Virus record (IMG/VR): IMGVR_UViG_3300033074_000304
Coordinates: 2,540 to 66,539 of that record
Length of the DNA: 64,000 nucleotides
Direction: 5' to 3' (one strand)
From: a virus
Lineage: Duplodnaviria; Caudoviricetes
Shown: piece after piece, positions 116-15,818 of the stretch
Numbering within the stretch: the first letter of the stretch is position 1
Layout: each line of letters opens with the position of its first letter
Position numbers and translations under genes: made by a program
The notes under the pieces: model-generated
The model's database searches: none
What the model was told of the DNA's origin: nothing
What the model saw: the letters and a program-made list of their open reading frames with translations, nothing else

Positions 116-1252
116 CTATATCCTGAATTTCTTCATCTCTTCGGCCTTGAATGAATCCAGCAAATGTGTATATCTCTGCGTGATCCAAATCGAAGAGTGT
201 CCCGCGATGTCAGCAGCCAGCTGAATGTTCTTGGTGGCCATAATCAGATGCGTCAGGAAGCAATGACGGAGCTCGTGGTAGACAAACTCTCCTATCCCAG
301 CCCTCTTCACTGCTGAGTCGAACCCGATATTGCTACTCACCAGCATCGCCTCTGTGGGCTTTTTGGTTGATGGGAATACCCAACCACCTATGCTGACAGG
401 CCTGCTACTTCTCCAAGCCAGCAGTGCTGCCCTCAACGTATCCGACATAGGTATCTTGACGGTACGTCCTGCCTTTACCTCTCTGGTGATGACGTTGGAC
501 TTCCAGTCAATGTGTTCCCACCGTAGGCCCAGCACTCCCTCCTTCCGCAGACCGGTGTTCAGAGCTACCACTACCATGGTGTAGAGATGGGCAGGGGCCT
601 TCTTGTCAGAGCACGCTGCCAGCAACCGCTGGATTTCCTCTGAGGTCAGACACCGTTCTCTGGTCTTCGGTTCGGGCAGCTTCGGGTAGCCCTCCATCAG
701 GTTCTTGATGATCACCCTCTTGCGTACCATGATCGTAAGGAGTCTGCTTAGGGCTGTCAACTCCCGGTTAATGGTTGCAGGCTGAGGCTTCGGGACGGTG
801 GACAAACGGTGTCTAACGTACTCATCAACCTCAAGGTGGTCAATCCTGCTGATGTTGATATTACCCAAGAATGGCAGCACGTTGGTCTTCAGGGCCGACA
901 GATACCTGAACGCGGTCTTCTCGTCCAGACGCTTACTCTCAACTTGTTCCTGACACCATAGTTGGAATGTCTCGACTGCCTCCCTGAGTGTCTTGCTGGA
1001 CGCTTTAACGACCAGCTCGCCAGATGACGCCTTCAGCACCAGTGTTGCCTCTCTTGCGGCTGCCTCGGCTTTTGAGACAGATACCGACTCTACGTGTTTC
1101 CGACCGTCGATATAAACCGCCACTGACCACTTCTTGCTGTACCTCGTGGCCATAAAACCACATGCTGGACACTGCTCTCCTTTTGGTTTTTCAGTCTGGA
1201 CCTGCCGCGACTTTTGACAGTTTTGACAGGTCAGCGTTTTGAAGATTGCCAT
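116..1252 (-). CDS. int: Tyrosine recombinase (phage integrase) with N-terminal Zn-ribbon
   Basis: TGLRKEG (Arg), HELRH (HxxR), AGHSS, RYTH (Tyr) catalytic motifs; N-terminal CQNC...CPAC. Confidence 0.93.
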   Translation of the reverse strand: MAIFKTLTCQNCQKSRQVQTEKPKGEQCPACGFMATRYSKKWSVAVYIDGRKHVESVSVSKAEAAAREATLVLKASSGELVVKASSKTLREAVETFQLWCQEQVESKRLDEKTAFRYLSALKTNVLPFLGNINISRIDHLEVDEYVRHRLSTVPKPQPATINRELTALSRLLTIMVRKRVIIKNLMEGYPKLPEPKTRERCLTSEEIQRLLAACSDKKAPAHLYTMVVVALNTGLRKEGVLGLRWEHIDWKSNVITREVKAGRTVKIPMSDTLRAALLAWRSSRPVSIGGWVFPSTKKPTEAMLVSSNIGFDSAVKRAGIGEFVYHELRHCFLTHLIMATKNIQLAADIAGHSSIWITQRYTHLLDSFKAEEMKKFRI

Positions 1253-1736: not shown

Positions 1737-1881
1737 GGTAATTACCCCCCCCATTGATTTGTACTACGGTATGACAGATGTACACCTTTTGCTTCTATTT
1801 GTCAACTACTGTCTTACATTGTCAGACAATAGCAACCCAGATGCTTGACAAGTCAGTTCGGCTATGCTAAACATTTTTTAC

Positions 1882-1892
1882 CAACTGAGTTG
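1882..1892. promoter_or_regulatory. Operator-like dyad CAACTGAGTTG in the divergent repressor/early intergenic region
   Basis: Perfect CAAC-N3-GTTG; the same dyad recurs at other promoters. Confidence 0.6.
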
Positions 1893-2088: not shown

Positions 2089-2230
2089 CTGGGGCTTTTT
2101 GGATGCGATGGATGACGAGAACTTGGCGGGGCTGATGAAGAGCAAGATGGCTCTGGCAAGGGAGGCATCAGCCTGTGCTGAAGAGTGCTTGGCCAGATTG
2201 ATGAAACGCGCCGGGGGTGAAGATGCGTAA
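2081..2230 (+). CDS. Small hypothetical protein (49 aa)
   Basis: SD AAGGAGG, overlaps the previous stop and next start. Confidence 0.5.
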   Translation: MDDWGFLDAMDDENLAGLMKSKMALAREASACAEECLARLMKRAGGEDA

Positions 2231-3176
2231 ACTCTACGGAGCCAATGTACTCATGTCCACCAATGGCATGAGCGAGGAGGAGTGGGTACAACATAGGCGT
2301 GCAGGCATCGGTGGCTCCGATCTGGGAGGCATCCTTGGGGTGTCTCCTTACTCAAGCCCGCTGTCTATATGGCTGGCAAAGGTCGAAGGCTACCAGAAAC
2401 CTGTTGGCAGGGCAGCTCACAGGGGCCGCATGTGTGAGGCGTGGATAAGTGACGAAGCGGCCAAGCGCAATGGGTGGAAGGTAAAGAGAGTCAACGCCAT
2501 CCTTCAACACCCTGAGCACCACTGGATGCTGGCCAACATCGACAGGATTATCGTGGCACCCGAGCTGGCTATTTCAGAGATCAAGATGATCAACTCCACC
2601 AGCCGGGAAAAGATGGTGTTGGAGAGTGGGGTGCTGCCTGAGCACGAATTGCAATGCAGATGGTATATGGCCGTGCTTGATATAGGCAAGTGCTACATTA
2701 CCTACGATCTGCCCAACAACGACCCTATTGACATTCTGATTACCAGAGACCTTGAGTTTGAGGAACACGCCATCTCTGCCTGCCGGAACTTCTGGGAACT
2801 TGTGGAGAGCAACCAGCCACCAGCCCTTGATGGGTCAGAGGACGCAGGGGAATGGTTGAAGCGCAGGTTCAACAACCCCACCGAAGGGCATGTTGATCTG
2901 CCAACAGAGGCCGCATTCTTGGCTCTGCAGTATCAGTCGGCACACAACACAATCAGGGAGGCAGAAACAACCAAGGAGTTGGCCAAACAAAAGCTAGAGG
3001 TTATGCTGGGCAACAAGACATGGGGCCGGGTAGACGGGTACGAGATCAGCTGGAAGCCGCTTACCACCAACAGATTGGACACAGACAGGCTGAAGAAAGA
3101 GCGGCCTGATCTGGTGAAAGAGTACACAAAACCAACCGAGAGCCGCAGGTTCTCAATCAAGGAGATCAAGGCATGA
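2217..3176 (+). CDS. YqaJ-like viral recombinase exonuclease
   Basis: RRAGIGGSD, MLANIDR, EIK and Q..WYM motifs of the YqaJ/lambda-exo family; upstream of RecT. Confidence 0.92.
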   Translation: MKMRKLYGANVLMSTNGMSEEEWVQHRRAGIGGSDLGGILGVSPYSSPLSIWLAKVEGYQKPVGRAAHRGRMCEAWISDEAAKRNGWKVKRVNAILQHPEHHWMLANIDRIIVAPELAISEIKMINSTSREKMVLESGVLPEHELQCRWYMAVLDIGKCYITYDLPNNDPIDILITRDLEFEEHAISACRNFWELVESNQPPALDGSEDAGEWLKRRFNNPTEGHVDLPTEAAFLALQYQSAHNTIREAETTKELAKQKLEVMLGNKTWGRVDGYEISWKPLTTNRLDTDRLKKERPDLVKEYTKPTESRRFSIKEIKA

Positions 3177-3481
3177 AGATACTGCTACACGACGGAAGAG
3201 AGCCAGTGCTGCTCAGATACGAATACCCATCCTTTGAACTCTGCTGGAAGAAGCAGACCAAGGACAAGGTTACCGGAGAAGTAACCGACGGGTGGGCACC
3301 GCAGCTGTACTTTGTATCACCGGCCCAAGCCCTGAGCAGGCTGCTTACCATGAAGGTGGGCAACTCTGACACAGCTACCCTGAAGGAGTTGAAGGCAGCG
3401 ATAGAGAAAGCAAGTCTGGAGATCATGGAAGCGTACAGCACGCAAATCACCGAGGAGGAGTTAAAGAATGTCAAACCTTAA
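3173..3481 (+). CDS. Hypothetical protein
   Basis: Translationally coupled ORF in the operon. Confidence 0.6.
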   Translation: MKILLHDGREPVLLRYEYPSFELCWKKQTKDKVTGEVTDGWAPQLYFVSPAQALSRLLTMKVGNSDTATLKELKAAIEKASLEIMEAYSTQITEEELKNVKP

Positions 3482-4349
3482 AGACAAAGTAGTGCAGAAG
3501 GCGGTAGCAGCCAAGCCACAGACCATTGGGGACAAGCTCAACCTGATGGCACCACAGTTCAACAAGATCATGCCGGGGTTTCTGCGCAAGATTGGAGGGG
3601 CAGAGGCTCTGGGGCGTATAGCTCTCAATGAAGTGCGCCGCCAACCGCGTCTGGCTCAGTGCAGCTGGGAATCTCTGGCCGGGGCCCTGATGACCTGTGC
3701 CCAGACCGGGCTGCTTCCGGGCCCACAGCGTCACTGCTACCTGATCCCTTATGGCCAAGAGGTGCAGTTCCAATTTGATTACCGCGGTATGATAGAATTA
3801 GTCCGTCGTTCCGGGGAGTTAGCAACGATCATGGCCACAGCTGTGTATGAGGGTGACGACTGCGAAATTGATATCGGCGCGTGCCATGTTCGCCACCCTT
3901 ACAACGAGAAGGTGGACAAGAGCGACCCTACAAAGATCAGGTTCGTCTACGCCAAGGCAGTGATGAAGGACGGGTCAGTTGCCCTTGAGGTTATGAACCG
4001 GGCGGAGATCGACGCTATCCGTAAACGCTCACAGGCGTCATCAAAAGGCCGACAGTCACCGTGGGATACCGATTGGGAGATGATGGCACGCAAGACCGTG
4101 CTCAAGCGCCTTTGTACCAAAGGGCAGCTCCCACTATCACTTGAGATGCAGAAGTTCGTCCAAGCTGACGAGTCTGTCCGTAGATCAGTCGATGCCGAGC
4201 CCGTCAATGCCCTTGAGTTGCCGCCTATTGCAATCATCCCGTCTACCGATGGTGTGTCGGTAGATGAGTCGGGATGGAAGCAGACCGAGATGATCCAGAC
4301 TGAAGAGCCTGCTACAGACATATTCGGTGAAGAGGTGGCGAATGGCTAA
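3468..4349 (+). CDS. recT: RecT-family single-strand annealing protein
   Basis: CAQTGLLPG..HCYLIPY, QFDYRGMIELVRRSG, SPWDTDWEMMARKTVLKRL. Confidence 0.93.
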   Translation: MSNLKDKVVQKAVAAKPQTIGDKLNLMAPQFNKIMPGFLRKIGGAEALGRIALNEVRRQPRLAQCSWESLAGALMTCAQTGLLPGPQRHCYLIPYGQEVQFQFDYRGMIELVRRSGELATIMATAVYEGDDCEIDIGACHVRHPYNEKVDKSDPTKIRFVYAKAVMKDGSVALEVMNRAEIDAIRKRSQASSKGRQSPWDTDWEMMARKTVLKRLCTKGQLPLSLEMQKFVQADESVRRSVDAEPVNALELPPIAIIPSTDGVSVDESGWKQTEMIQTEEPATDIFGEEVANG

Positions 4350-11528: not shown

Positions 11529-11809
11529 GCGTCCCCCTTACCTTTCTCTATCAACTTAATTTCATATTTTAGATCAGAAATTTGTATTTCTAACTTATCT
11601 ATTTCTTCTTTAGCATCGTCCAAATTATCAAATAGATTATTACCCCAATCTCTTAGACCAGAATTAACCTCTCTGATCCGGTTTAGCTGTTTGATGGCGT
11701 GTTTTATGTCAACATGAGTATAGGCACAATCCATGTCCTCTAGCGTTGCAATCACGCTATCAATTAACGGACAGGTAATCTCCCATCCAGAGTTGTCTTT
11801 TAGGCTCAT
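11525..11809 (-). CDS. Hypothetical coiled-coil protein
   Basis: TCPLIDSVI...IREVNSGLRDWG; SD GGAGG. Confidence 0.6.
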   Translation of the reverse strand: MSLKDNSGWEITCPLIDSVIATLEDMDCAYTHVDIKHAIKQLNRIREVNSGLRDWGNNLFDNLDDAKEEIDKLEIQISDLKYEIKLIEKGKGDA

Positions 11810-12030
11810 ACGTCCTCCTTCCCTATCAACTCTAAACAAGTAGCAACGACAGCGGCGCGGCGGGTATAATATTTGTCGTATATTGTCACCTCCGCGCACC
11901 TCTCCAGCATCGCAGCGGCACCGGCTTGGTATGCCGCCTTAGCTGCGCTGTATGCTTCAGGCGTAGGACAGCAATCGTAGTTTCCCATCCACTCTTCAAA
12001 CTCATTCATCATCATTTGTATAACTTTCAT
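11806..12030 (-). CDS. Hypothetical protein sharing its 3' end with the 12027-12320 gene
   Basis: TRRAAVVATCLELIGKEDV vs TRREAVVAACLELIGKEDA. Confidence 0.55.
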   Translation of the reverse strand: MKVIQMMMNEFEEWMGNYDCCPTPEAYSAAKAAYQAGAAAMLERCAEVTIYDKYYTRRAAVVATCLELIGKEDV

Positions 12031-12320
12031 GCGTCCTCCTTCCCTATCAGCTCCAAGCAAGCAGCAACGACAGCTTCACGGCGGGTAGGTTTGCCATAAC
12101 TAAAAGCTAACCTTGCATCACCATTATTGGGGTAAATTTCACAACTCCATGCAGCGGAAGCGTTATCCATAAAAATGTCATATTTTTTTCCCACCAACGT
12201 ATCCAGCAGGCTCATGGCTGCGGCATCATCGTTGAGGTAGTCGGGTAGTTCATAATATTCGTGTAATGGCTCCCCAAACATTGGCCCCTGCCAACGTGCC
12301 AGAATTTCATTATCTGTCAT
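12027..12320 (-). CDS. Phage ABA-sandwich-like protein (paralogue 2)
   Basis: MTDNEILARWQG...PDYLNDDAAAMSLLDTLV. Confidence 0.6.
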   Translation of the reverse strand: MTDNEILARWQGPMFGEPLHEYYELPDYLNDDAAAMSLLDTLVGKKYDIFMDNASAAWSCEIYPNNGDARLAFSYGKPTRREAVVAACLELIGKEDA

Positions 12321-12522
12321 TTGCTTTCTCCTTGTACTCCATCGCCCTCATGCGATCCTCAAAACGCTTACCACCTGATAACCCCCACGGCAGTTCCCAT
12401 TCGGCTATGATTTGTTCCTTTGCCTGCTCCCACCCTTCGCGGTGGGCGGTGGCAAGTTGTTGTTTAAGTGATGGTCTAGTATGGCAGTCACACCATACTG
12501 TATGATTAGCTACGTTGCACAT
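12310..12522 (-). CDS. Hypothetical protein
   Basis: ORF track, SD present. Confidence 0.5.
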   Translation of the reverse strand: MCNVANHTVWCDCHTRPSLKQQLATAHREGWEQAKEQIIAEWELPWGLSGGKRFEDRMRAMEYKEKANDR

Positions 12523-12533
12523 CCCTCACCCTC

Positions 12534-12764
12534 CTATGCGTCAGCAGCAATCTTATGTGCTATATGTTGCAATTCCACATGATCCATTGAATGTACTTTA
12601 GATGCACAGGCGGTTCCATCTAGATAGCGCATAATACAGTACCGTTCTTCATCTGTTAAGGCAGGTATATCCAATGCAACATATAGTGCATTTCCATAGT
12701 ATGCCTCCCCAAGTGCCGTTGCGATTAGCTCTTTGGCTATCTGGTAGTTATCGTATTTACTCAT
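12534..12764 (-). CDS. Hypothetical protein
   Basis: ORF track, SD present. Confidence 0.55.
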   Translation of the reverse strand: MSKYDNYQIAKELIATALGEAYYGNALYVALDIPALTDEERYCIMRYLDGTACASKVHSMDHVELQHIAHKIAADA

Positions 12765-12767
12765 CCC

Positions 12768-13259
12768 TCATCCCTCCAGTCCGAAATGCCGCTTAACATG
12801 AATTTGAGTTATAGGGTCTATAAACTCTAAGCACTCTTTTATAGCCTCTTGACGAATATGTTTGGTGTACTCTTGCAAGCCTAGTACGCTCCCAATCCTC
12901 TCATTCTCTGCCCTTGCCTCGGCAAGCAAGGCTTGACTTGCGTCTAGCTGGCGTTCAAGGTCATCTGCGCGATTAAATTGTTCAACGGCTTTCAGTGACC
13001 ATGATGACTGCTCTTCTACAAGAGCATTAATCCGTAGCCAATCTGACTCAGTGCTTTCTTTGAACGAATCCAGCTGGCGTTTGTAGCCATTGATTTGTGC
13101 GTTACATTTCAATATTACTTGATAATTATCGTTTGCTATCGTGCTTGCCTCTTCCAGCTCTGCCTTGAGCCGGTCGATCTCGCAGTAAGGGCAATCTTTG
13201 CCCTCTGTTGCAAACAGGTACGTGTGTTGGTCGCACGTTTCAAATCCGTTGCTCATCAT
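12768..13259 (-). CDS. Coiled-coil protein with N-terminal CxxH/CxxC
   Basis: TCDQH...DCPYC then heptad-rich region. Confidence 0.6.
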   Translation of the reverse strand: MMSNGFETCDQHTYLFATEGKDCPYCEIDRLKAELEEASTIANDNYQVILKCNAQINGYKRQLDSFKESTESDWLRINALVEEQSSWSLKAVEQFNRADDLERQLDASQALLAEARAENERIGSVLGLQEYTKHIRQEAIKECLEFIDPITQIHVKRHFGLEG

Positions 13260-13271
13260 TCCCTCCTTTTT

Positions 13272-13319
13272 ATCTAACCACTCGATACAGCGGACACGCC
13301 GCTGATCTTGGCGTTATGG
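13272..13319 (+). mobile_element. attC-like integron recombination site B (48 bp)
   Basis: R'' ATCTAAC, 5 bp, L'' GATACAGC (extra A relative to L'), L' GCTGATC, 5 bp, R' GTTATGG. Confidence 0.65.
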
Positions 13320-13523
13320 CGCTAAATCCAGTAGCCAACCTGGAACAGTGCCGCCATTGTCTGCGGTCAATTTATCAACGACCGCCCGAAATACCTTATC
13401 TGATTCCTGAAATGCTGACAGGTATGTTGCTGTGTCCTCCATCATTTGTGCAAACTCAGGTTCCAGACTGTTTTCAGCTTGTTTCTGGCATTGAAAAATA
13501 CAGACACCTATTGAATACCTCAT
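13314..13523 (-). CDS. Hypothetical protein carried as an attC-bounded cassette
   Basis: SD GGAGGT; its stop codon TAA is the TTA of the attC-B core site. Confidence 0.65.
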   Translation of the reverse strand: MRYSIGVCIFQCQKQAENSLEPEFAQMMEDTATYLSAFQESDKVFRAVVDKLTADNGGTVPGWLLDLAP

Positions 13524-13541
13524 CTTTGTGGCACCTCCGCG

Positions 13542-13603
13542 CCATAACCAGTCATCCAAGCGGACGATAAAACCGTCCGCCGCTTAATTCCGCCCCGTTA
13601 GCG
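13542..13603 (+). mobile_element. attC-like integron recombination site A (62 bp)
   Basis: R'' CCATAAC, 5 bp, L'' ATCCAAGC, GGACG/CGTCC hairpin, L' GCTTAAT, R' GTTAGCG; R'' is the exact complement of attC-B R'. Confidence 0.7.
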
Positions 13604-13864
13604 GCTTCTGAAATTTAGGCAGTAAGCGCAGCCGTCTTTTATTACCCACGGTTCCGGCTGTTTGCTTTCCGCAGTGGCCTCAATGATAAATTTGCATCCA
13701 GAGCCTTCCTGCTTTTCGTTCCACAAAACCTCGTCAGGGTCAGAGCATTGGTCACAAAAATTGGCATAAAATTGCATCATCTCTGTTCCGCAACTCGGTA
13801 TATATGGTTGGTATTCAACATTTTGCATGTTATCACCGGCCACCTGCCGTTCCCGTATGGTCAT
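13598..13864 (-). CDS. Cys-containing hypothetical protein ending in the attC-A core
   Basis: CGTE...FCDQC...GCKFI...CLNF; stop TAA overlaps GTTAGCG. Confidence 0.6.
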   Translation of the reverse strand: MTIRERQVAGDNMQNVEYQPYIPSCGTEMMQFYANFCDQCSDPDEVLWNEKQEGSGCKFIIEATAESKQPEPWVIKDGCAYCLNFRSR

Positions 13865-14172
13865 GCTTCCTCCTGATAGTTGTACATGACATGCCACACC
13901 CCGGAACAGGCCATGTGATACTCGTCTTCTTTTATAGAGTTTTTGAAGTTGTCGTAGTTAATCCCCAATACGTGCATAGCAATGGTTGTCGCGGCCTCGC
14001 CCTTTGGTATTACTGCTCTGAACATATAGTCAGCAGACGGGGTCTTGGTTATTTCGGCGGCGGGGAACAGGGCTTTCAGATGTTTTTTGTTCCGTGCTCT
14101 GATCATGAGGGTGGTCTTGTCGTCGCGGTTCTCTACTGCTGAGATGAATCCTTTATTGGTGAATATCCACAT
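13861..14172 (-). CDS. Conserved-looking hypothetical phage protein
   Basis: MWIFTNKGFISAV...IRAR...DYMFRA...INYDNFKNS pattern recalled from uncharacterised phage proteins. Confidence 0.6.
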   Translation of the reverse strand: MWIFTNKGFISAVENRDDKTTLMIRARNKKHLKALFPAAEITKTPSADYMFRAVIPKGEAATTIAMHVLGINYDNFKNSIKEDEYHMACSGVWHVMYNYQEEA

Positions 14173-14415
14173 AGGCGTCTCCTTTGTCGAAGTTGTTAAC
14201 GAAATCTGCGGTGTCTTGGTCGAGTTTGCCTGCTGCGTGGGCTATTGCCCCTGCTATGAATGCGTGCCTGATAGTTGGCTCTGCCACTGACCCAATGATG
14301 TGGCCCATACTGTGGGCAGTCAACACGATGGTGATGAAGCCCAGCTCAAAGACTATCTGATCACCACGCAGGCGAACTGAGAGCTGCCTGAACCAGTGAA
14401 GCTCCAGAATGGATG

Positions 14416-14664
14416 TCATGCCGCCCTCCTTTCTGTTGCTACGGACTTGTAGATACTAAGCTGGTGGTATGCTGCCTCAAGCTCAGAGCTGAACTCTCTG
14501 CCGTCTGAGCACTCCCAGACCACCACCTCATGACGCGCCGGGTACTGGACTGTCTCGATCAGGGCCAGCTTGAGAGCCTTCTGCTTAGCTGATCTTTTAC
14601 GCCACCACTCGCGCTTCTGGCAGGTATCACATACTCCACATTCACATTTCAGTTGTCTGGCCAT
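14416..14664 (-). CDS. Hypothetical Zn-binding protein
   Basis: CECGVCDTC; SD AGGAGG. Confidence 0.55.
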   Translation of the reverse strand: MARQLKCECGVCDTCQKREWWRKRSAKQKALKLALIETVQYPARHEVVVWECSDGREFSSELEAAYHQLSIYKSVATERRAA

Positions 14665-14833
14665 AGGTTGCCTCCTTGTCGCGTGGTTTGCGTCCACGCT
14701 TGCCGTTTGTTGGTTTGTATTGGTTCATGATATAAACGCATTGTCTGGTGATGCCCAGCTCAGCTGCCAATGCTACGGCGCTTTCACCTGCTGCCAGTCT
14801 CCGTTTGACCATCTCGTGTTTGGGCTCGCTCAT
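14642..14833 (-). CDS. Small HTH DNA-binding protein
   Basis: RRLAAGESAVALAAELGITRQCVY. Confidence 0.7.
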   Translation of the reverse strand: MSEPKHEMVKRRLAAGESAVALAAELGITRQCVYIMNQYKPTNGKRGRKPRDKEATYGQTTEM

Positions 14834-14967
14834 TTGTGTTGGTCCTCCATCCAGTAGTGTCGCGCCCCTCTTTTGAATTTTTTGGTAGGGATCAGGACGT
14901 AGACTACAATAGCCAACGCCCCGATCAGCACCGCCCTTGCTGCCAACCAATCTGCAACAGCGTCCAT
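14830..14967 (-). CDS. Small membrane protein
   Basis: Hydrophobic AVLIGALAIVVYVLIP; TGATG coupling. Confidence 0.5.
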   Translation of the reverse strand: MDAVADWLAARAVLIGALAIVVYVLIPTKKFKRGARHYWMEDQHK

Positions 14968-15818
14968 CAGTTTTTCCTCGGTGCCATCTTGAAGGTGAAT
15001 ACGCCACGGTATCCTGCCAGGCGCGTTTCGCATACCGGCTCCCCGGCCTCGGTCCACCCGGTTCTGGTTTCCTGAGTTACTGGCTCATACCCCCAAGACT
15101 CAATCATGCCTGTGGTCTCAAGCCGTTCTGCCAGTTGGCTGCAGCGGTTGCGGTGCCATGCCACTTTGCGCAGGTCCGACGTATCGCAAAGCCCGTATAC
15201 CAGCCTGCTTACCAGAGAGTCGGCCCCGATCTTGCCGTTGTTGGTGTATTCTTTGTGTTCGTATGACCAGCTGATATCAAAACCAGATTCGTCTTCGATC
15301 TTGATGTTCGCTCCCTTCAACCTGTTGGTGATAGTCCTGCGTGAAGGGTACGACCAGCCAGCAGGCAGGCTCGTCCTGTTGCTGACTTGGCTGATCAGGG
15401 TTCTGTATATTTCGTATGTCTCAGGGTTGATGGTCCACCGTGCGGCGTAACCCTCTGGGAGGTTGCCTGCGTGCAGCTCGACAACCACCGCGTCTACTGT
15501 ATAGCTGCCATCTGGGAGCCTGTAATAGGAGTCGGACTCTAAGCGGTAGTACGGCTCGATGGTGCAGGTCTGCCCTTGGTGTACTACTGTCAGGCCAGCC
15601 AGCCCTGTATGTTCCCACTGCTGGTATGCCCAGTCTTTGTAACAGCCGGACATCAGATAGCTGTGCTTGTTGCTGTGGTCGTTGCGCTGGCCTTGGAGCT
15701 GGCTGAGCTGCTGTTTGAGCCTATTGATCTGTTCTTCAGTGCGTGCTGCGATATCCTTGTGTTGCCTTGCTTCCCTGATTGCCTGCATATCGGGTGCTGC
15801 GTAAGTTTTCTGTTCCAT
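14967..15818 (-). CDS. Hypothetical protein
   Basis: 283-aa ORF with SD AGGAG. Confidence 0.65.
   Translation of the reverse strand: MEQKTYAAPDMQAIREARQHKDIAARTEEQINRLKQQLSQLQGQRNDHSNKHSYLMSGCYKDWAYQQWEHTGLAGLTVVHQGQTCTIEPYYRLESDSYYRLPDGSYTVDAVVVELHAGNLPEGYAARWTINPETYEIYRTLISQVSNRTSLPAGWSYPSRRTITNRLKGANIKIEDESGFDISWSYEHKEYTNNGKIGADSLVSRLVYGLCDTSDLRKVAWHRNRCSQLAERLETTGMIESWGYEPVTQETRTGWTEAGEPVCETRLAGYRGVFTFKMAPRKN

Follow-up and report, generated by a model that had tools for sequence, protein, structure and literature searches.

The window analysed here, which is the whole stretch of 64,000 nucleotides, makes up most of a 66.5-kb IMG/VR record rated complete by CheckV. This genome encodes a primase-helicase, a terminase, a portal protein and a 3391-aa polyvalent protein, together with a tyrosine integrase (116–1252, minus strand; PF00589, 104 bits), a YqaJ exonuclease (2217–3176) and a RecT annealase (3468–4349). 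Based on this gene content, the source is a temperate tailed phage, and both of the sites described below lie well inside its genome, in a block of early genes. The 3391-aa ORF was also considered as an N4-type virion RNA polymerase, with the hairpins of the locus as its promoters; this candidate was rejected, as ART and LPD38 domains identify the product as a polyvalent protein. Concerning the host, no tRNA and no bacterial flank was found as a clue (first 2.7 kb of the record and right end of the window), and megablast, blastn and tblastn searches of the region against a phage sequence collection gave no matches.

The genes between about 10 and 21 kb of the window are on the minus strand and are tightly packed or overlapping, except around a 69-codon ORF (13314–13523), which is set off by spacers of 54 and 74 nt. 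To the left of the first of the two sites (site B, 13272–13319), the ORF list gives a gene for a 163-aa coiled-coil protein (12768–13259, minus strand). The ORF between the sites (13314–13523, minus strand) encodes a small helical protein of 69 aa and has a GGAGG ribosome-binding box at about 13534–13538. As the sequence-only reading had described, this enclosed gene ends with a TAA inside a GTTA core: its stop (13314–13316) is the TTA of the R′ core of site B. A flanking phage gene of 76 aa (13598–13828, minus strand; phrog_6074, E = 2e-7) ends in the same manner, its TAA (13598–13600) being the TTA of the R′ core of the second site (site A, 13542–13603). This upstream gene had been read as 13598–13864; the stop in the GTTA core stands and an in-frame extension does reach 13864, but the ATG at 13828 is the more likely start because the homologues start there.

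Two homologues of the 69-aa protein, 71% and 52% identical to it, align with gaps that span whole residues (3 and 4 aa), and a C-terminal homologue in another contig (L062) has synonymous differences; the divergence of the 76-aa gene is also mostly synonymous. Given these homologues, the whole-residue gaps and the synonymous divergence, the minus-strand ORFs are real genes. The 69-aa protein matches no family in PHROGs, Pfam or NCBIfam, and the protein atlas returns only generic helical-bundle look-alikes for it. No relatives of the 163-aa and 69-aa genes were found in a search of the viral contig collection, and a tblastn comparison of 13 local proteins with the fetched bacterial and viral array loci revealed no cassettes in common. 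On the + strand, an 84-codon frame (13317–13570) is open across the cassette, from an ATG in the R′ box of site B to a TAA in site A; lying opposite a real gene, this frame is probably open by chance. In the 163-aa gene, related contigs from two metagenomes lack 21 nt at window position 12925, which corresponds to 7 codons in frame.

Anatomy, family and polarity of the attC sites

Site B (13272–13319, + strand) is 48 nt long and is composed of R″ (ATCTAAC), a spacer (CACTC), L″ (GATACAGC), a 9-nt centre, L′ (GCTGATC), a second spacer (TTGGC) and R′ (GTTATGG), with the crossover predicted between G13313 and T13314. Site A (13542–13603, + strand) is 62 nt long and is composed of R″ (CCATAAC), a spacer (CAGTC), L″ (ATCCAAGC), a centre of 20 nt that includes a 7-bp stem, L′ (GCTTAAT), an 8-nt spacer and R′ (GTTAGCG), with the crossover predicted between G13597 and T13598. 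In both sites an 8-nt L″ is opposed to a 7-nt L′ and the fourth base of L″ is unpaired (an A in site B); site A also has one L-box mismatch. All elements of the full attC anatomy claimed for both sites on the + strand in the sequence-only reading are therefore present. Folded as DNA, site B is predicted to form a stem of 9 bp interrupted by a single bulge (z about −2), and the folds of site A have z values of −2.75 and −3.4. A loose TAAC–hairpin–GTTA descriptor finds 4 sites in the window versus 1.0 ± 0.8 in shuffles.

A covariance-model search had been proposed as a check of the sites. We used a model of our own, R1, which is based on 57 diverse bacterial attC sites and in which the pairs of the R box, the L box and the inner stem were specified, and searched the whole 64-kb window on both strands (128 kb) with filters off. 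Both sites are matched at full length on the + strand, site A with 51.2 bits (E = 1.5e-10) and site B with 45.2 bits (E = 5e-9), scores which are like those of proven attCs but not fully independent of the sites, since the training set was collected with a pattern derived from their 5′ arms. The R″ and R′ core boxes (consensus letters TAAC and GTTA) are matched by both sites in the R1 alignment. The next best match in the window has only 10.2 bits, no third attC was found in it, and neither site has a minus-strand match at E ≤ 10. The positive controls, which are attCs from the class 1 integrons of plasmid R100 and of a Klebsiella IncC plasmid, score 58.3 (aadA1), 50.6 (aadB) and 43 bits (cmlA5) on the strand in sense with the gene, and at most 9.4 bits on their bottom strands. 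The more distant attCs of arr-2 and OXA-10 are missed, so R1 is specific to a subfamily. Most of the concern about independence is answered by these class 1 controls, the clean background and the adjacency of intI to the bacterial arrays described next.

The window-derived pattern matched 45 viral contigs, most of the matches being full attC sites, and at least 120 loci (L063–L182) in bacterial genomes. The training family occurs in dense arrays, with 432 hits in 532 kb in the bacterial loci among the matches listed; these arrays are co-oriented and are found in Rhodanobacter, Dyella, Ideonella, Thermoanaerobaculia, Desulfobacterales, Thioploca, Ca. Thiodiazotropha and others. An intI above the TIGR02249 cut-off is present in four of the five bacterial genomes tested, and in all three genomes which have both on one contig the intI directly adjoins the array and the sites point away from it. 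From this it follows that the orientation of the sites on the + strand of the window is that of the attC top strand; in R100, the same orientation is the sense orientation of aadA1. The + polarity suggested earlier is thus confirmed by the bacterial arrays and by R100. Since the attCs are on the + strand and the conserved ORFs are on the minus strand, the genes run against the attC polarity, which had likewise been claimed. A typical cassette carries a promoterless ORF in the top-strand orientation of its attC, whereas the conserved ORF here is on the minus strand. The L062 homologue of the 69-aa gene also lies between TAAC–hairpin–GTTA elements, the upstream one being a weak R1 match. In one Thermoanaerobaculia locus (L120; intI at G004:C5:432245–433180), the intI is upstream of the array on the same strand and is not divergent from it.

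Looking at each site separately, the closest relatives of site A among the matches listed are Rhodanobacter-type attCs, to which its 5′ arm is identical at 24 of 25 positions, and the closest relatives of site B among the matches listed are 48-nt attCs in Ca. Thiodiazotropha arrays. Site B had been described as short in comparison with classical attCs; it is indeed 48 nt long, but attCs of the same layout and length occur in bacterial arrays, and for this reason its shortness is no obstacle. Attention may be drawn to three such loci with 48-nt attCs and a 9-nt centre, from Ca. Thiodiazotropha and a Ctena orbiculata symbiont (L071:975–1352, L127:2360–2407 and L100:1749–1796); two of the L071 sites are 330 bp apart. 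The attCs of class 1 cassettes range from 57 to 141 nt and are longer than these symbiont sites. On the basis of their scores, layout and arm sequences, we class both sites of the window as integron attC homologues and not merely as attC-like.

A predicted cassette and the variation at its ends

The R″ box of site A pairs with the R′ box of the upstream site B at 7/7 positions, and over the extended repeat at 10/10; the left arm of this inverted repeat (GTTATGGCGC, 13313–13322) comprises R′ of site B and the first bases of the cassette, and the right arm (GCGCCATAAC, 13539–13548) is the extended R″ of site A. The exact complementarity between R′ of site B and R″ of site A which had been reported therefore holds and extends to 10 bp. 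With its own R′, in contrast, the R″ of site A pairs at 5/7 positions only. At its three variable R-box positions, site A agrees with the upstream R′ at 3/3 and with its own R′ at 1/3. In the bacterial arrays (listed loci), these positions are perfectly paired with the upstream R′ in 95 of 138 pairs and with the own R′ in 39 of 138; in such arrays R″ pairs with the preceding R′ because the crossover takes place at G|TT. This pattern of pairing defines a predicted cassette of 284 bp (13314–13597, + strand), which starts with TTATGG, contains attC site A and the 69-aa gene together with the GGAGG box of that gene, and has the G of the R′ box of site A as its last base. By the logic of these arrays, the 163-aa gene (12768–13259) would belong to the cassette which owns site B. 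Concerning the start of that cassette, neither a + strand GTTAGAT nor a third attC was found upstream; the 163-aa gene ends in TGA and there is no GTTA core at 12768.

The two co-oriented sites are 222 bp apart on the + strand, and there is no intI nearby; a CALIN is characterised by at least two attCs within 4 kb and no nearby intI, and a complete integron by an intI with an adjacent attI and Pc. No IntI-class protein is found in the 66.5-kb record. Its sole tyrosine recombinase (116–1252), which is 12 kb away from the sites, scores 63 bits against TIGR02249 (cut-off 265) and 26 bits against PRK15417 (cut-off 435), and on these scores is classed as an ordinary phage integrase outside the IntI class. 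The earlier statements that IntI is absent and that the locus is CALIN-like are both upheld: with a tyrosine integrase but no IntI in the record, and two + strand sites within 4 kb, the locus is a two-site CALIN.

Variation between relatives was studied with contigs (not reads) from four public runs, which were placed on 11800–15200 and whose coverage gaps (e.g. 12484–12711 and 14194–14649) are not evidence of absence. A 44-kb contig from run X24, which may come from the source sample, covers the whole stretch with zero differences. Related contigs from runs X1 (wastewater) and X2 (aquatic) match the window through the 163-aa gene and site B as far as 13316/13317 (GTTA or GTTAT) and beyond this point enter two different, unrelated sequences, in both of which a minus-strand frame again ends at the same TAA. 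Other related contigs start at 13596/13597, and the interior bin 13396–13509 is covered by no contig in the two other metagenomes (X1 and X2). Gene 13598–13828 is also found in contigs L002 and L003, with 93.6% nucleotide and 94.6% amino acid identity; the homology extends from the start codon to the TAACG at 13596, which is two bases past the crossover point, while the flanking sequences are unrelated. Conservation is thus limited to the ORF itself, from its start codon to its stop, and does not take the form of an attC-bounded cassette.

On both sides the breakpoints are within 0–3 nt of GTTA, as would be expected if the cassette behind site B differed from phage to phage. The presence/absence polymorphism proposed as a check of the cassette was found at contig level, in that relatives diverge at the GTTA cores (13316/13317 and 13596/13597); a circle or deletion joint for 13314–13597 is not listed among the contigs, which are blind to rare forms. 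The breakpoint pattern is no proof of IntI action, because it is based on contigs only, the region is mosaic elsewhere and the cores are stop codons: as both R′ cores coincide with stop codons, ordinary recombination at gene boundaries would give nearly the same breakpoints. Mosaicism is also seen at many gene boundaries of the region where there is no attC. In a 5.8-kb contig from X1, position 14176 is joined to 14670 (a skip of 493 bp) with one extra base and no attC at the joint, and two small genes (14153–14419 and 14416–14697) are omitted.

Proposed recombination by a host integrase and other explanations

The data show that the sites resemble attCs in sequence and anatomy, which way they point, that they have the crossover signature and that related contigs vary by whole cassettes at both R′ cores. 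We think it likely that these are genuine attC sites in a two-site CALIN; that they would recombine at G|TT by means of an IntI supplied by the host, and that the block was once inserted, is our inference. In the proposed mechanism, the minus strand of the window (the attC bottom strand), when single-stranded, would fold at each site into a hairpin of R box, spacer and L box with unpaired bases. An integron integrase of the host cell, and not of the phage, would bind the hairpin and cut between the G and the TT of the R′ core. Recombination of site A with site B would then free a 284-bp circle (13314–13597), the rejoined attC of which would have the 10-bp R″/R′ stem, and new genes would be taken up if either site recombined with a free cassette. 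The locus may be active at present.

The block itself may have entered the phage by an IntI-type insertion at the G|TTA which overlaps the TAA-C stop of gene 13598–13828, and this stop is likely to be the original insertion target. An insertion at a stop-codon GTTA would leave the gene intact and force the attC top strand onto the non-coding strand; this is the proposed reason why the genes are backwards and end at the crossover point. The copy in L002, which ends with TAACG and has no adjacent attC, looks like the unoccupied form of the target. IntI inserts cassettes at 5′-GWT-3′ genomic sites and can re-excise them (10.1101/2022.09.11.507474), and since insertion at such sites has been demonstrated experimentally, the G|TT junction at the TAA-C stop fits an IntI insertion. 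Points which stand against the host-integrase reading are the absence of IntI from the record, the presence of only two sites and the left cassette boundary, which was not found.

According to the main rival explanation, the sites are integron-derived but fixed relics, and the variation arises by homologous or short-homology exchange between phages (through YqaJ and RecT, or host RecA), for which the conserved attC arms and the ends of genes would serve as patches of homology, with no integrase involved. Several of the observations are what this explanation would lead one to expect: the phage has YqaJ and RecT and no IntI, a RecT gene is found about 1 kb from the attC array of a viral contig (L038), relatives differ at many boundaries free of attC, such as the 493-bp skip, and L002 contains gene 13598–13828 as a bare ORF. 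The chain complementarity and the positions of the breakpoints argue against it, and we consider it rather unlikely. The 10/10 pairing of R″ of site A with the upstream R′ is the trace of a G|TT crossover, which homologous exchange inside an attC would not make; the breakpoints on either side are at GTTA within 0–3 nt; and the sites have kept their unpaired bases and their strand asymmetry.

It is improbable that the hairpins are kept mainly for a role as RNA in the leftward transcript, where they could be a weak terminator, a processing site or a 5′-leader, with the integron ancestry being incidental. Their position would suit such a role, as each hairpin is 8–25 nt upstream of the GGAGG of the next minus-strand gene, amid otherwise overlapping genes, and the antisense placement recurs in other viral contigs. 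However, no U-tract follows either stem, a terminator scan calls neither site, and no Rfam family is matched, with only sub-threshold hits to AsdA (17 bits) and sR3 (14 bits); also, the R boxes, the unpaired bases and the chain complementarity are left unexplained. A role as RNA is compatible with recombination of the sites by a host IntI and may be an added function of the hairpins. Chance hairpins and a chimeric contig of phage and bacterial integron, which the shortness of the TAAC and GTTA motifs (stop codons included) and the presence of two sites only might suggest, are effectively excluded by the R1 scores (45–51 bits versus at most 10.2 elsewhere), by arms near-identical to those of bacterial attCs, by the 44-kb X24 contig which spans the stretch without a difference (possibly from the source sample), by relatives from other metagenomes in which the 163-aa gene is joined to site B, and by the phage genes on both sides in a record rated complete.

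Related systems and gene orientation in viral arrays

Phage CALINs are already published, and attC-bearing phages without an integron integrase are rare. Qi, Rajabal, Ghaly, Tetu and Gillings (2023, Front Microbiol) screened 10,705 phage genomes and found integron components in 21 of them, including 17 CALINs with at least two attCs each, and IntI1 recombined 5/6 of the attC sites tested from virulent phages (PMC9892861). The locus in the window is similar to these CALINs (PMC9892861) in having at least two attCs within 3–4 kb inside a phage, no intI and small cassettes of unknown function, and in the proposed dependence on a host IntI. It differs from them in that it belongs to an uncultured temperate phage from a metagenome, has two sites and is known from sequence alone. 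The genes in the window are also antisense to the attCs, with their stops inside R′, unlike in that account; antisense or opposite gene orientation is not mentioned in the text of PMC9892861.

With the sedentary chromosomal arrays of Rhodanobacter and other Xanthomonadales, Ca. Thiodiazotropha, Thermoanaerobaculia and others (L063–L182), the window shares one attC subfamily, which is characterised by TAAC, a CAGTC spacer, an 8-nt L″ ending in AGC, GGAC…GCC, a 7-nt L′ and CGTTA. Identical arm sequences, sizes of 48–62 nt and R-box chain complementarity are also common to both. Unlike the locus in the window, the chromosomal arrays are long, with about 20 sites in 8 kb, are located beside an intI and contain ORFs mostly in sense. 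The type of attC suggests that the sites came from proteobacterial chromosomal integrons (Rhodanobacter-like and Thiodiazotropha-like), which is an ecological clue and possibly also one to the host. The class 1 attCs (59-base elements; aadA1, aadB and cmlA5) have the same box layout, a partly shared L″/L′ sequence (…CAAGC / GCTTAA…), the unpaired base on the same arm and R1 scores of 58, 51 and 43 bits versus 51 and 45 bits for the window; their cassettes, however, are found downstream of intI1, attI1 and Pc with the genes in sense, whereas the sites in the window have no integron platform.

The locus can also be compared with attG insertions (Loot et al., 10.1101/2022.09.11.507474), in which a cassette outside an integron is joined to the backbone at G|TT; those were studied in E. 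coli and V. cholerae chromosomes, whereas insertion into a phage genome is what we infer here. Phage morons and mosaicism are similar in having a small extra gene amid packed genes, stem-loop flanks and whole-gene differences between relatives. Morons are defined by a promoter and a terminator of their own, and unlike them the window has stem-loops that are homologous to attCs, contain R and L boxes and lack a U-tract. The locus is a well-supported case of attCs in the middle of the genome of a complete temperate phage, where they mark a unit which varies between related phages. It supports the view that phages ferry integron cassettes from one bacterium to another and also use the integron machinery of the host to reshuffle small early genes of their own.

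Concerning gene orientation, co-oriented arrays of the window's attC family are found in other IMG/VR contigs (L025:8789–10377, L055:5801–8380, L038:3822–5212, L031:3059–3999, L047:903–1232 and L032:5625–7664). In L025, which has 7 R1 matches, six antisense ORFs end 5 nt inside the R′ box; in L055, L038, L031, L047 and L032 the antisense ORFs end in the R′ core, in the same register as in the window. Phage-like genes are found next to the viral arrays, encoding RecT, a DNA methyltransferase, a Mom-like protein and an endolysin. When ORFs of at least 50 codons ending at the TAA of an R box are counted, the viral loci have 4 sense-only and 10 antisense-only ORFs, versus 88 and 28, respectively, in the bacterial loci among the matches listed (Fisher p = 0.0007); this is a crude comparison, as the ORFs were taken without a gene caller, the GC content of the bacterial genomes is high and the contigs are not independent of one another, and the orientation bias is treated as a lead.

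Taking together the window, L002/L003, L062 and the other IMG/VR arrays including L025, we tentatively suggest that phage attC arrays might be a distinct, backwards class, in which the genes are antisense and each ends with the TAA of a G|TTA core. Such a layout could arise because the neutral targets for IntI in compact phage genomes are the GTTA motifs in TAA-C stops. If such a class exists, the attC bottom-strand sequence would be on the coding strand of the cassette genes, and phages would have a cassette pool which is exchanged via host integrases and whose genes would be silent in a bacterial integron. The recurrent backwards orientation, if upheld by a proper survey, would be a new insight into the entry of cassettes into compact genomes.

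Two of the viral contigs have further arrangements of sites. L002 contains an attC-family site of its own (2942–3002, minus strand; 36.5 bits), which is just upstream of the gene shared with the window and antisense to it, and the shared gene is flanked by an imperfect direct repeat of about 27 nt (2979–3005 and 3345–3372) containing GTTAGAGGC. In L058, two attCs (1760–1820 and 1821–1886, minus strand) are located back to back with no cassette between them, and one of them has R″ CCATAAC and R′ GTTAGAT, which are the box sequences of the sites in the window.
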